Source of the DNA: an uncultured Gemmatimonadales bacterium
GTDB taxonomy: Bacteria; Gemmatimonadota; Gemmatimonadetes; Longimicrobiales; RSA9
Direction of reading: 5' to 3'
Length of the DNA: 64,000 nucleotides
Assembly: GCA_963708135.1 (NCBI GenBank)
Contig: OY970192.1
Coordinates: 2,656,001-2,720,000 of the forward strand
Position numbers and translations under genes: made by a program. Of this stretch, positions 24,476 through 52,691 are shown one piece after another; the stretch's first letter is position 1, and each line of letters opens with the position of its first letter. Below the pieces are notes generated by a model. The model was given only the letters and a program-made list of their open reading frames with translations, was not told the origin of the DNA and made no database searches.

Positions 24476-24964
24476 TCAGTTGCAGGCGATGATGTCGTCC
24501 GTGGTGGCGGGGGCCGCCACGCCCGAGGGGGCGTTGCCGATGAAGATGCCGCACTGATGGCCGGGATAGCCCGCGTGGTCCGCCGTCGCGGCCCAGCCAC
24601 CATGAGCGGAGTAGGTGATGCTGAGCGTGACGCTCGGGCTCGGCTGGAAGTTGGCGACCGCCGGATCGGAGGCGTAGATGCCGTTGGAGGCGTAGTAGAT
24701 CTCCTGCTGGATGGAGAGCACGCGCAGGTCGTTCTGGAGCGTGGCCAGCATGGCGCGCTCGCGGACCTTCGTGAAGCTGCCGGCGACGATGGAGGCGAGG
24801 ATACCGATGATGACGACGACGAGAAGCAGCTCGATGAGCGTGAACCCGGCGCGGCACGGCGGCTCGTGATCGCGCGCGGCGGCGGGATGGCGGGCCGCCC
24901 CCGCCCGGGGGTGAGCGAAGGAGGCGGAGCGGCGGGCAGCCAGCTCAAAGGGGCGCGGGATCAT
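24476..24964 (-). CDS. Second major-pilin-like protein (PilA paralog)
   Basis: RAG|FTLIELLLVVVIIGILASI; QEIYY, F.PS..VT and CG.F.G....AAPAT.....C shared with PilA; ATGA overlap with upstream gene. Confidence 0.82.
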   Translation of the reverse strand: MIPRPFELAARRSASFAHPRAGAARHPAAARDHEPPCRAGFTLIELLLVVVIIGILASIVAGSFTKVRERAMLATLQNDLRVLSIQQEIYYASNGIYASDPAVANFQPSPSVTLSITYSAHGGWAATADHAGYPGHQCGIFIGNAPSGVAAPATTDDIIACN

Positions 24965-26703
24965 GAAGCGCTCCTGGCCGTGGCCGCGGCGGTCGGCACA
25001 CGCTGGAAGATGACGTACATGCGGAAGAGGGCGATGAGGTGGTAGTGCGCGCTGAACTCCGCGGCGAAGCGCGGGTCGCGGAGGAAGTACTGGAGGTAGT
25101 CGAAGTGGGCCATCGCCCGCGATGGGCCGACCCGGTCGACGATGAGGAGCGTCGGGCGGGCGCGCAGGAAATCCTCGACGTAGGCGTCCGCGAGCCAGTG
25201 CTCCGCGGGGCTCGTGTGCGCCGGGTCATGATAGGGGAAAGGGTCCGGCTGCCCGGTGACCTCGGGATACAAGCCCGCCAGGGGCCAGAGGGAGTTGAAG
25301 CGGGTGGCCCAGCCGATGCCGGTCAGGTTCACGAGCGGGAACCCGGCCTGGAGCTGCGTCGAGAGGACCATGATCGGCCCCTTCCCGGCATCGCGCTCGA
25401 CGAGTTCGAGCATGGCGGGGAGGTAGTAGGGGTAGCCGGCGTAGTAGCCGACCGGAGCCGGGTGACGGGCGCGCTGCCCGGCCGAGCCGAGCATGACGGC
25501 GGCAATGCCGAGGAACGCGAGCGAGCGCGCGGCAGCGACGTGCGTGGCGATCCGGGGCCGCTCGCCCAGACGGCGCAGGGCGTTGACGAGCACCACGACG
25601 AGGAGCAGCAGCGCGGCGGAGAGCACGGGCAGCCAGTGGTAGTCCCAACCCTTGCGCTCCCAGAGCAGCGCGGCCAGGAACCCGAGCATGACGAGCAGGA
25701 GCAGACGCCGCAGGTGGCGCAGCTCGGGCCGGCCCGGCACGAGGACGGCGGCCAGGGCCGCGGCGAGAACGAGGGCGCCCTTTGAATTCAGCAGCAGCCA
25801 ACTGTAAGGCTCGGGAACGAACCCGGCGTACGTGGCCCAGGCGAACTTCGCGATGCCCAGGTAGGCGGGCGTGAGGACGAGCACGCCGACGAGGTAGAGT
25901 CCGATCGCGGCCGCTGCCGCGAGGCACTCGGGGCGGCGTACGGCGCGCCGCCAGCCGCTCGTCGCGAGCAGATACAGCTCCACGGGCAGCAGGACCAGCA
26001 GGAAATACGGCTTGAGGGCCACCGCGAGGCCGGCAGCGATGCCGATGCCGACGGCCGCGCGCGGGGAGATGTCGCGCCGCTCGGCGCGCAGGGCGGCGAG
26101 AACCAGGTAAGGCAGGAAGAGGGCGAACATCAGGTGCTCGCGCTGCCCGAACTCGCGCCCGGCGAAGGGGAAGAGCAGAAAGGCCGCGAATGCGACGAGG
26201 AGGCGGCGGCCGGCGTCGCCGAGGGAGAGGCGGCGCAGCAGCAGTGCTGTGGCCAGCAACGCGCTGGCCGCGACAAGTCCCACGAAGACGGGAAACAGGA
26301 CCATGTCCGAGAGGCCGAGCGCGCGGGCGGCCCCCTCCACGGCGAGCGCGAAGCCGACGATCAACGGGGGGTTGACCTCGATGACGTCGCGGTACAGCAC
26401 GGCGCCGCCGAGGACCCGGTGGGCGACGTAGAGCAGCCAGGCATGGTCGTGGTTGATCGGGACCGCGAAGAGGGCGACGTAGGCGAACAGGCAGACGGCG
26501 GCGGTAACGACCAGCCAGAAGGCGCGGGCCGCGCTCAGCCGGCGGGCGAGCTCGAGCGGCCCGGCGGCCGACGCGGAATCCCGGTGGCCCGCCCGGGGAG
26601 CTCCCGGGACCGGCCGGATCGACCGCAACGGGCGTTCGACGGCAGCGCGGGGGGCGGGCGGGGCCACACGGCCCCGCAGCACCTGAGAGACTGGCTCCGT
26701 CAC
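24961..26703 (-). CDS. Polytopic membrane protein, GT-C-like putative glycosyltransferase, immediately downstream of pilA
   Basis: About 11-12 hydrophobic segments; first loop INHD...LYRDVIEVNPP; FGQREH, ALKPY; periplasmic C-terminal domain. Confidence 0.62.
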   Translation of the reverse strand: MTEPVSQVLRGRVAPPAPRAAVERPLRSIRPVPGAPRAGHRDSASAAGPLELARRLSAARAFWLVVTAAVCLFAYVALFAVPINHDHAWLLYVAHRVLGGAVLYRDVIEVNPPLIVGFALAVEGAARALGLSDMVLFPVFVGLVAASALLATALLLRRLSLGDAGRRLLVAFAAFLLFPFAGREFGQREHLMFALFLPYLVLAALRAERRDISPRAAVGIGIAAGLAVALKPYFLLVLLPVELYLLATSGWRRAVRRPECLAAAAAIGLYLVGVLVLTPAYLGIAKFAWATYAGFVPEPYSWLLLNSKGALVLAAALAAVLVPGRPELRHLRRLLLLVMLGFLAALLWERKGWDYHWLPVLSAALLLLVVVLVNALRRLGERPRIATHVAAARSLAFLGIAAVMLGSAGQRARHPAPVGYYAGYPYYLPAMLELVERDAGKGPIMVLSTQLQAGFPLVNLTGIGWATRFNSLWPLAGLYPEVTGQPDPFPYHDPAHTSPAEHWLADAYVEDFLRARPTLLIVDRVGPSRAMAHFDYLQYFLRDPRFAAEFSAHYHLIALFRMYVIFQRVPTAAATARSAS

Positions 26704-51024: not shown

Positions 51025-52691
51025 CAGCGCGGCACCCCCGCCGCCGCCGGCACGCCGGCCGGCTCCTCTCGCACTCCCGCCCTTCCCTGCCCCGGGAGGT
51101 AGACCGTGAACTGCGCTCCGCGCTCGCGCCCCGACTCGACGAAGATCGCGCCGCCGTGCGCGACCACGGCCCGGTGCACCAGCGCGAGACCCAGCCCGGT
51201 GCCACCCTTCCGCGTGGTGAAGAAGGGGTCGAAGATGCGCGTCGAATCCTCGATGGCCACGCCCGGTCCCGAGTCGGAGACCACCACCCGCACGGGCTCG
51301 GCGAGCACGACGCCGGCGGGAAGCTCCGACGGCGCCGGCGCGTCGAGCTCGACCCGCACCACCCCACCCTGCCCCGCCTGCTGGGCGCCGTTCAGTACGA
51401 GGTTGAAGATCGCCCGGTGCAGCAGGTCCTCGTCCCCCTCCACCCGCAGCGCGCCCGCGCCCGCCGCGTACTCGAGGCGCACCGAGTCCGAGTCCGGGTG
51501 CCGCTCCACCAGCTCGATCGCCTGCCGCGCCAGCGCCGCCAGGTCCACCCCGCCGCGGCGGCGCAGCTCCAGCCGGCTGAAATCCATGAACTCGGTCAGC
51601 AGCCGCGACAGCCGGTCCGACTCCGTCAGCACCAGCCCGCGCAGCGTGCCCCTGTCGCGCTCCTGCAGCCGGTTGCCGCCAAGCTGCTCGACGGCGCTCC
51701 GGATCGAGGCCAGCGGGTTCCTGATCTCGTGGGCCAGCGACGCGCCCAGCTCCGCCACCGCCTGCAGCCGCTCCGCGCGCCGCGCCAGCTCCTCCAGCCG
51801 CTTGTCCTCCGTGATGTCCTGGAACACCGCGGTCACCCACGGCACCCCCTCCCGCTCCAGGATCGTCGTGCGCGCCCCCACCACCCGCGGCCCCGCCTCC
51901 GCCGTCACCGGCATCCGGATCTCGTACTGGTGGATCGGCGTGCGCCGCGTCGCCGTGTAGGACACGGCCCCACCCAGCCCCGGCGCGGCACGGTCCAGCT
52001 CGTCCACCACCCGCACCCCGCGCCACGTCCGCTCCCGGATGCCCAGCAGCCGCTCCCCCGCCTCGTTCAGGTACACCAGCCGCCCATCCGCGTCCACCGT
52101 GACCAGCCCCGTGTCGATCGCCTGCAGGATGTCCGACGTGTCCAGCCGCAGCTGCTCCAGCTCCGACTCCACCGCCCCCAGCGCCGTGCCCGTCCGCCGC
52201 AGCCGGTCCCCGAGCGCCGCCGTCACCAGCGCCATCGCAGCGAACAGCGCCAGCTGGAGCAGCACGCTCCCCGTCGCCGGGTCCGGCTGCAGCCACGCGA
52301 TGTCCGCCACGTACAGGATCCCCGCCAGCCCGCCGATCAGCATCCCGCCCGGCAGCGGCAGCAGCAGCGCACCCGCCGCGATCACGAGGATGTAGAGCGG
52401 TGGAAACTCGCTCCGCGCCCCGCCCGTGATGTGCACCACGGCCGTGACCACGAGCGTGTCGAAGATCACCTGGAGGTAGAGGAAGTTCCGGCCCGGAAGG
52501 CGGCCCCGCAGCTGCGTGTGCCACAGACTGCCCAGCGTCACCACGATCGACAGCAGCAGCACCAGCGTGGCCACCAGCGTCGTCAGCGGCGTCGTACGCG
52601 GCCACACCAGCAGCGCACCACCGAAGATCCCGGCGGCGAGCGTGAGGCGGCCGAGATACAGCCACCTGAGCGTTCGCAGCGAATGCATCAT
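51024..52691 (-). CDS. pilS: Sensor histidine kinase PilS-like (six TM + PAS + HisKA + HATPase)
   Basis: N-terminal TMs with YLQVIFD..TGG..S.F..LY PilS signature, PAS, AHEIRNPLASI, DSGPG, FDPFFTT, GTGLGL. Confidence 0.82.
   Translation of the reverse strand: MMHSLRTLRWLYLGRLTLAAGIFGGALLVWPRTTPLTTLVATLVLLLSIVVTLGSLWHTQLRGRLPGRNFLYLQVIFDTLVVTAVVHITGGARSEFPPLYILVIAAGALLLPLPGGMLIGGLAGILYVADIAWLQPDPATGSVLLQLALFAAMALVTAALGDRLRRTGTALGAVESELEQLRLDTSDILQAIDTGLVTVDADGRLVYLNEAGERLLGIRERTWRGVRVVDELDRAAPGLGGAVSYTATRRTPIHQYEIRMPVTAEAGPRVVGARTTILEREGVPWVTAVFQDITEDKRLEELARRAERLQAVAELGASLAHEIRNPLASIRSAVEQLGGNRLQERDRGTLRGLVLTESDRLSRLLTEFMDFSRLELRRRGGVDLAALARQAIELVERHPDSDSVRLEYAAGAGALRVEGDEDLLHRAIFNLVLNGAQQAGQGGVVRVELDAPAPSELPAGVVLAEPVRVVVSDSGPGVAIEDSTRIFDPFFTTRKGGTGLGLALVHRAVVAHGGAIFVESGRERGAQFTVYLPGQGRAGVREEPAGVPAAAGVPR

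Follow-up and report, generated by a model that had tools for sequence, protein, structure and literature searches.

A candidate modular pilin O-glycosylation locus in the type IVa pilus cluster of an uncultured Gemmatimonadales bacterium

Genes between pilR and pilA

The window analyzed here, a 64,000-nucleotide stretch (contig OY970192.1, positions 2,656,001 to 2,720,000; assembly GCA_963708135.1), sits in a single-contig genome of 5.45 Mb from an uncultured Gemmatimonadales bacterium, and its named homologs are from Gemmatimonadota, mostly Longimicrobiales. The region is the main type IVa pilus cluster, in the order pilS, pilR, a block of glycan genes, pilA, a second pilin, a second kinase/regulator pair, minor pilins and pilMNOQ, and all six pilin-motif matches of the genome lie inside the window. 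The families, folds, motifs and synteny observed for the block (g1 to g18, with g19 behind pilA; Table 1) are best explained by a modular pilin O-glycosylation locus, a reading that we consider fairly probable and from which we infer both chemistry and acceptor.

Table 1. Features of the pilus glycan block, numbered by position in the window
Feature	Position	Strand	Basis
pilS, sensor histidine kinase with PilS-like domain of six transmembrane (TM) helices	51024..52691	-	Pfam PF25323, HisKA, HATPase
pilR, sigma-54 activator	49648..51027	-	Pfam; position in relatives
g1, DPM1-like polyprenyl-phosphate sugar synthase, core module A	48758..49651	-	PfDPMS E 7e-18; in 22/23 complete pilR-pilA intervals
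g2, DPM/AglJ-like GT2, four C-terminal TM helices; proposed module B primer synthase	47580..48761	-	model matches; co-occurrence with g12
g3, soluble GT2; nearly all module B loci have it after g2, and relatives often have rmlD close by	46681..47580	-	Pfam, synteny
g4, sulfotransferase-like candidate (lead only)	45860..46684	-	ESM Atlas; no Pfam match
g5, Wzx-family flippase	44323..45876	-	PF01943 E 1e-13; 13 hydrophobic segments
g6, S-adenosylmethionine (SAM) methyltransferase; lowest third-position GC content (GC3) of the block (0.80)	43502..44221	-	Pfam, GC3
g7, GT4, WcaL-like below cut-off	42244..43500	-	Pfam, NCBIfam
g8, GT2, frameshifted near 42076 in this assembly	41293..42244	-	open reading frame analysis
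g9, GT2, g8 paralog	40307..41290	-	Pfam, sequence comparison
g10, GT4; converges on g9, diverges from g11 over 80 bp	39139..40380	+	Pfam, gene map
g11, GT4; opens second coupled run	37826..39058	-	Pfam, gene map
g12, GT-C, PMT_2, loop-1 DE; proposed module B en-bloc transferase	35994..37829	-	Pfam, co-occurrence
g13, SAM methyltransferase; frequent partner of g14	35140..35997	-	Pfam, synteny
g14, second DPM-like GT2, weakest assignment; module C	34323..35150	-	GT2 match
g15, GT-C, PMT_2/PMT, loop-1 DE; proposed single-sugar periplasmic transferase, module C	32647..34326	-	Pfam; synteny
g16, TMTC/TfpW-like GT-C + TPR, core module A	30954..32657	-	motifs
g17, TMTC/TfpW-like GT-C + TPR, clade of g16	29309..30964	-	Pfam, motifs, tree
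g18, TMTC/TfpW-like GT-C + TPR, pilA-proximal clade	27466..29328	-	motifs, structure model, tree
Activator-site-like motif upstream of pilA; putative PilR site	27431..27451	-	15/23 pilA upstream regions vs 0-1 per control set
Sigma-54 -24/-12 promoter-like site of pilA	27313..27326	-	23/23 pilA upstream regions
pilA, major type IVa pilin; proposed acceptor	26834..27238	-	Pfam, NCBIfam
Hairpin terminator, 13-bp, 3' of pilA	26776..26804	-	hairpin prediction
g19, GT-C fold protein between pilA and pilA2	24961..26703	-	structure model
pilA2, second pilin, coupled to g19	24476..24964	-	Pfam, gene map

An original prediction, made from the sequence alone, had described 18 glycan genes between pilR and pilA, an ATGA overlap of pilR and g1 at 49648-49651, and a distance of approximately 230 bp from the end of the block to pilA. 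The count and the overlap are right, and the measured distance from g18 to the start of pilA is 227 bp. However, that prediction missed the strand of g10, which splits the block into two coupled runs: g1 to g9 behind pilSR, in which 101 bp separate g5 from g6, and g11 to g18, which start from the divergent gap. A single operon spanning the whole block is ruled out, because the plus-strand g10 divides it and pilA has its own sigma-54 site. A recently acquired horizontal island is likewise ruled out by the gene GC of the block (0.69-0.78, compared with 0.72 for the genome) and the phylum-wide occurrence of its core.

Sigma-54-type sites are found 50-135 bp upstream of pilA in all 23 upstream regions compared, whereas control sets of 11-34 genes each gave 0 to 7, and no sigma-70-like promoter is found in 23600-43400. 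The proposed co-regulation with PilSR holds in so far as g1 to g5 are translationally coupled behind pilSR, but g11 to g18 lie beyond the antisense gene, and the sigma-54 and activator-like sites front pilA itself. In relative G010, pilR directly adjoins pilA, which is presumably also the arrangement in Myxococcus and Geobacter.

Enzyme families were assigned from Pfam and NCBIfam profile matches of the island proteins and from AlphaFold2 models aligned to solved structures. The six predicted GT-C proteins are all borne out: g12 and g15 by Pfam (PMT_2 above the cut-off), g16 to g18 by TMTC motifs, and g18 and g19, the latter located after pilA, by models. The model of g18 (predicted local distance difference test score 95) aligns with AglB (Z 20.7, root mean square deviation (rmsd) 4.2, 326 residues aligned) and Pmt2 (Z 19.1), and that of g19 with Pmt2 (Z 22.1, rmsd 4.2, 359 aligned) and ArnT (Z 20.2). 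At the level of predicted models, these alignments confirm a GT-C fold for two proteins that are barely visible to Pfam. Foldseek and Protein Data Bank (PDB) sequence searches with full-length g18 were swamped by TPR matches, and the fold was settled by structural alignment; a TMTC entry is absent among the matches listed in the structure search.

Three polyprenyl-phosphate-sugar-synthase-like GT2s are present, as predicted. P. furiosus DPMS is the best solved relative of g1, and g2 matches ArnC/DPMS at approximately 1e-12. The best NCBIfam model for g2 is AglJ (E 2e-38), at 132 bits against a cut-off of 325, so g2 is not an AglJ equivalog; g14, the weakest of the three, has a GT2 match only, and we take its motifs to be ALG5-like. 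Pfam also agrees with the three other GT2s, three GT4s, one Wzx and two SAM methyltransferases that had been listed, apart from the g10 strand and the frameshift in g8. The sulfotransferase-like label of g4 comes solely from its ESM Atlas neighbors (scores 0.96-0.97); g4 has no Pfam or NCBIfam match and no BLAST similarity to a Sulfotransfer_3 protein of a relative. The STT3 match of g15 (E 0.003) is below the cut-off, and no STT3/AglB ortholog is found in the island.

The predicted lack of Wzy, Wzz, a ligase and a phosphoglycosyl transferase (PGT) is reflected in the lack of a Pfam match among the island genes, and the genome's own PGTs have no tblastn match in the window. Four PGT genes and four Wzy_C matches occur elsewhere in the genome. 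The Wzy_C tblastn queries failed to find each other, and only the PGT half of that search was counted; PF11846, the PglL marker, matched nowhere, controls included, and is uninformative. The locus thus differs from the Wzx/Wzy O-antigen and PglL/TfpO types in having no PGT and no Wzy_C-type ligase or oligosaccharyltransferase (OTase), and action of such enzymes in trans is possible. Overall, the enzyme families are consistent with GT-C transfer from lipid-phosphate-sugar donors.

A conserved DPM1-TMTC-pilA core

To compare the pilR-pilA interval, 60 relatives were anchored on pilS and the downstream kinase, which yielded 23 complete intervals (19 from one tally and four read individually). Orthologs of the DPM1-like g1 are present in 22 of these and TMTC-like genes in 20; two intervals carry g1 alone and one is empty. 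The smallest form of the interval is pilR-DPM1-TMTC-pilA. In a GTDB-wide scan, the best 80 of 605 matches gave 77 loci, nearly all from Gemmatimonadota, of which 16 were left out for missing downstream DNA. A pilin lies within 4 kb downstream in 53 of the 61 testable loci, in a set picked with a profile made from pilA-adjacent copies and composed of kin that are not independent; a DPM1 ortholog occurs in 51 of 72 loci. In L039, L040, L057 and L065 the triad is intact with no pilSR nearby, which indicates that the link is to pilA. The three TMTC-like genes of the present genome are all in this block. The proposed linkage of the block to pilin is therefore strongly supported for the core by synteny in relatives, and we hold with good confidence that the core (g1 with g16 to g18, module A) acts on pilin. 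Judged by sequence, it is a DPM1-fed variant of the TfpW/TMTC type and the likely initiator of pilin O-glycosylation.

Of the TMTC motifs M1-M7 defined in PMC7801869, the sequences DD, YRP, KE, D[YW] and ERxx[YF] are retained in g16 to g18. Across 42 TMTC-like rows, DD is present in 41, [YWF]RP in 42, KE in 40, D[YW] in 35 and ERxxY in 40; the SHKS part of M2 is lost, and g18 has ERxxF. The GT-C domain plus TPR architecture is found, with TPR Pfam matches in 32 of the 42 rows. The TMTC_DUF1736 match of g18 (E 0.076, 13.4 bits) is below the cut-off of 27; weak matches occur in 12 of the 42 rows (best E 2e-4), and none of the 41 phylum genomes has one above the cut-off. Three longer relatives of g18 carry PF08409 in precomputed annotation, and a search for longer proteins gave 40 relatives, among which no eukaryotic TMTC is named. 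Because the motifs are kept and DUF1736 stays below its cut-off, g16 to g18 are called TMTC-like.

Published systems are compared here through those passages of each source that describe them. The closest precedent is TfpW of P. aeruginosa Pa5196/PA7, which is responsible for D-arabinofuranosylation of group IV pilin and was matched by its published description (bioRxiv 10.1101/2020.04.19.049825). As described there, the shared features are size, a GT-C domain of approximately 11 TM helices, a DDX in loop 1, a proline motif that precedes a periplasmic TPR, a gene adjoining pilA, a lipid-phosphate sugar donor, and Ser/Thr acceptors, which are TfpW's own and are predicted here. The TfpW motif YX6PFX7P corresponds to YX6PLX7P at residues 282-298 of g18, with L for F, and falls on the DUF1736-like loop. 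The YX6PX8P spacing is found in 31 of the 42 rows; g16 and g17 retain the two prolines without the Tyr, DD remaining invariant. Unlike tfpW, which lies downstream of pilA, the genes here are upstream, number one to four copies and are accompanied by large variable cargo modules. The donor synthase probably also differs, a DPM1-type GT2 here and the phosphoribosyl pyrophosphate/DprE route for TfpW; no UbiA-like synthase or DprE1/E2 is among the Pfam matches of the island, and in Pa5196, by the passages used, such genes are unlinked.

With animal TMTC1-4 and DPM1, the core shares GT-C plus TPR, motifs M1, M4, M5 and M7 (M2 and M3 in part) and the weak DUF1736 signal, whereas DUF1736 is below the cut-off, the TPR part is shorter, and mannose and the cadherin-type acceptor are known from the animal system. 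Prokaryotic TMTC homologs are described as uncharacterised in the passages drawn on (PMC7801869). A search of mostly open-access literature found nothing linking TMTC-like enzymes to pili and no account of pilin glycosylation in this phylum. The designation "eukaryote-like" is thus true of the enzyme families, but a GT-C plus TPR pilin glycosylase using a lipid-phosphate sugar is known in bacteria; since TfpW is a proven enzyme of this kind, the central idea of the original prediction has a bacterial precedent.

In a quick tree search, the TMTC-like proteins fall into a pilA-proximal clade with g18 (21 rows, Shimodaira-Hasegawa-like approximate likelihood ratio test (SH-aLRT) 100) and a clade with g16 and g17 (13 rows, SH-aLRT 99). 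Both are spread over many genera, which suggests divided labor. Ser/Thr residues make up 22% of the globular part of PilA, and the Ser/Thr richness advanced earlier as evidence does not separate pilins with TMTC neighbors (0.13-0.25, n=20) from those without (0.16-0.21, n=3). A predicted complex of g18 with mature PilA scored 0.00 and was not used as evidence either way.

Two features of TMTC-like genes elsewhere are recorded. A 1208-aa fusion at L017:5173-8799 joins a membrane protein of cluster C7, which is present at 10 other loci and has no Pfam match, to a TMTC-like domain. In another phylum, G100, G134, G141 and G161 carry 14-17 TMTC-like genes each, partly in tandem arrays.

Variable modules

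Module B comprises g2, the soluble glycosyltransferases, the Wzx flippase and g12. Among 63 genomes of the family, whose members are kin and not independent, g2 and g12 are both present in 15, g12 only in one, g2 only in two and neither in 45; genomes with both span 10 genera. Of 19 module B loci, 12 have Wzx, two an ABC exporter and one neither, and four are truncated. Eleven relatives carry module B within the pil interval, and one further locus, L165, has it next to a pilA without TMTC; it is elsewhere in five and unplaced in two. No Bac_transf-type PGT is found in the 194 sequences searched, and the same queries find one another in the genome. A PGT-free set of a DPM-like GT2, soluble glycosyltransferases, a flippase and a GT-C is therefore present in module B. 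Enzymes of the nucleotide-sugar GT2 and GT4 families, such as g3 and g7 to g11, are cytoplasmic, and zero transmembrane helices are predicted in these six proteins.

This set resembles the lactococcal WpsA/B-WpsC-F-WpsG-WpsJ and streptococcal GacI-L systems, in which an undecaprenyl-phosphate-sugar GT2, cytoplasmic extension, Wzx and en-bloc transfer by a GT-C operate PGT-free (PMC9574508). The likeness is one of layout: no separate WpsB/GacJ gene is present here, where g2 has four C-terminal TM helices, and the Wps/Gac systems decorate cell-wall rhamnan in monoderms, whereas the present organism is a diderm with a probable protein-linked acceptor. In Haloferax volcanii, AglJ/G/I/E-AglB likewise moves a monophosphate-lipid oligosaccharide en bloc, and a single sugar is added on the outside from a second carrier, with a methyltransferase in the pathway (AglD/AglR/AglS, AglP; PMC3871713). 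Unlike in this locus, Agl glycosylation is N-linked via AglB on the S-layer protein. These two accounts provide precedents for monophosphate-linked en-bloc transfer (PMC9574508, PMC3871713), and with a monophosphate lipid sugar as the primer in the WpsA-WpsJ and AglJ routes, the lack of a PGT is no argument for stepwise assembly in the periplasm. A stepwise pathway, as first proposed in place of en-bloc transfer, suits modules A and C but is not supported for the block as a whole: g3 and g7 to g11 are helix-free and travel with a Wzx or ABC exporter, g2 and g12. By analogy, module B probably makes an oligosaccharide on a monophosphate lipid that is flipped and moved en bloc; that its product lands on pilin in this genome has about an even chance. 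The acceptor is the weakest link of module B and is uncertain because the module lies outside the pil locus in five relatives.

Between the fixed ends of module B, relatives carry rmlD, aminotransferases, NeuB, and pyruvyl-, acetyl- and sulfotransferases, so that this variable cargo would be like that of a serotype locus. A ManC-type isomerase domain elsewhere in the genome permits mannose as a sugar. A UDP-N-acetylglucosamine 2-epimerase gene at 58654-59778 (minus strand), approximately 6 kb upstream of pilS, could be a supplier of N-acetylmannosamine for the block.

In module C, g15 is accompanied by a second DPM-like GT2 in all eight complete relative intervals that contain g15, and the composition of the module (g13 to g15) fits single-sugar addition. 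The pairing of a DPM-like synthase with a GT-C recalls three-component GtrA/GtrB/Gtr* periplasmic glycosylation (PMC11127046), from which it differs in that no GtrA-family gene is detected in the genome and that the classical Gtr acceptor, in the passages cited, is O-antigen.

The site just 3' of pilA also hosts variable glycan genes (in relatives at L011:2043-7212 and L017:13606-15411): rmlA/C/B with a YfhO-like gene in G007, a GT-C-looking membrane protein in G035, and g19 here, which is absent from the called genes of the relatives' loci examined. An alternative cargo that the window lacks directly precedes the TMTC genes at L013:6823-11351 and in nine or ten loci like it; it consists of a methyltransferase, a DPM-like GT2, a Trm112-fused methyltransferase and an asparagine-synthase-like amidotransferase, which suggests an amidated or methylated sugar.

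Proposed route, alternatives and implications

The block is best read as modular, a hybrid in which one sugar primes the pilin and an oligosaccharide extends it en bloc, rather than as one stepwise pathway. In module A, g1 would load one sugar onto undecaprenyl phosphate, and after flipping by some carrier g16 to g18 would move the sugar, on the periplasmic side, to Ser/Thr residues of PilA anchored in the membrane. Site selection would probably fall to the TPR domains of these enzymes, and the two old paralog classes (g18; g16/g17) may serve different sites or pilins. In module B, g2 would make a lipid-monophosphate sugar primer that g3 and g7 to g11 extend in the cytoplasm, with possible decoration by g4 and g6; g5 would flip the oligosaccharide, and g12 would transfer it onto the first sugar or straight onto protein. 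In module C, g14, together with the methyltransferase g13, would produce another lipid-phosphate sugar, for one-at-a-time addition in the periplasm by g15 and perhaps by g19. Through the variable cargo, the glycan on the pilus would differ between strains, with phage pressure as a plausible cause.

Several observations, in addition to the way the 77 loci were chosen, weigh against this scheme. For the core, the intervals of G012 and G027 contain DPM1 without TMTC, and in six loci of family f3 pilR is followed by neither a DPM1-like gene nor a pilin, so that the linkage is not universal. The TMTC-like family counts 54,101 representatives at E < 1e-30, mostly not pilin-linked elsewhere, with up to 17 copies in a single genome. 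Within the phylum to which G100 belongs, TMTC-like genes occur in 32 of 61 genomes, often in multiple copies, and a pilin motif is found within 1.5-kb flanks, a shorter window than the 4 kb used for the main set, in only 3 of 30 loci; by this comparison pilin linkage is a property of the present lineage and not of the whole family. Pilin Ser/Thr content does not follow TMTC presence. For the modules, module B is off the pil locus in G027, G166, G004, G175 and G180, and G027, a 96% complete genome, has zero TMTC matches. The four PGT genes elsewhere are potential primers of module B in trans, and no GtrA-type flippase is found in the genome. Module B may also be partly disabled here, because g8 is frameshifted and the genome has no strong RmlD (best E 7e-23, compared with 1e-94 or better for the RmlD of relatives).

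These points bear most directly on the alternative that the core glycosylates pilin whereas modules B and C decorate lipopolysaccharide, exopolysaccharide or other envelope glycoconjugates, with pilR-pilA as a mere landing site. The five off-locus modules, the PGT and Wzy_C genes elsewhere and the classical modification of O-antigen by DPM-like plus GT-C sets (PMC11127046) would agree with it. However, in the 11 relatives with module B within pilR-pilA, g12 sits beside TMTC or g13-g15 genes, two g12 copies adjoin a pilA in L165, and the pil loci of G166, G004 and G180 retain DPM1 and TMTC, with trans action on pilin possible; we regard this alternative as rather unlikely. It is improbable that g12 is a protein OTase that works alongside, and independently of, the addition of the TMTC sugar and attaches the entire block straight to pilin or other proteins. 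The order g2-g3-Wzx-GTs-g12-g12-pilA in L165, TMTC-free in between, the module B behind pilR in G018, which has zero TMTC matches, and the loop-1 DE motif and PMT_2 match of g12 point in this direction, but 13 of the 16 g12 genomes also have a TMTC match, G018 is in 220 contigs, L165 runs into a contig end in a genome that is 80% complete, and the DE motif is general among GT-C enzymes. The PilSR-controlled addition of all sugars singly in the periplasm from lipid-phosphate donors, as originally proposed, is very improbable: three DPM-like synthases, six GT-Cs, zero PGT and the make-up of modules A and C would suit it, but it does not account for six soluble GT2/GT4s or for an oligosaccharide exporter, which is of the Wzx or ABC type in 14 of the 15 module B loci that are not truncated, and an antisense gene divides the block while a sigma-54 site fronts pilA.

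Beyond the block, a gene for a 1045-aa PD40 beta-propeller-repeat protein (53345-56482, plus strand) diverges from pilS, and a similar gene is likewise placed in many relatives. A second HAMP kinase and sigma-54 regulator pair at 21037-23949, behind the pilins, is conserved in the family and placed like Myxococcus pilS2R2; the pil cluster of Myxococcus is described with two pilRS pairs (PMC6060248). Approximately 500 bp of degenerate repeats at 20050-20560, very C-rich on the minus strand and G-rich on the plus, separate the second response regulator from a fimT-like pilin gene; they could be a true repeat or a stretch of low complexity in the assembly.

For the modular pilin O-glycosylation reading, the DPM1-TMTC-pilA triad offers a small candidate acceptor for the very large bacterial TMTC-like family described as uncharacterised (PMC7801869), and it makes donor, acceptor site and TPR role directly testable. 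The triad could also be a simple model for the human TMTC enzymes, of which no structure turned up in the PDB searches made for this locus. In Pseudomonas, phages specific for the pilus are blocked by glycans on the pilin (bioRxiv 10.1101/150227), and on that basis the variable cargo is predicted to form a serotype-like locus for phage defence in a phylum common in soil. The monophosphate-linked en-bloc transfer that module B suggests for a diderm may be of use in glycoengineering. A bolder proposition, which we put forward as doubtful but possible, is that a phylum-wide bacterial counterpart of DPM1-TMTC primes pilin with one sugar, and that in some lineages a hypervariable oligosaccharide, assembled on undecaprenyl monophosphate, is then added en bloc by a second GT-C. 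If true, this would be a diderm hybrid of protein glycosylation, so far known piecewise from archaea, lactococci and TfpW; it would provide the first substrate for bacterial TMTCs and place TfpW in the TMTC family.

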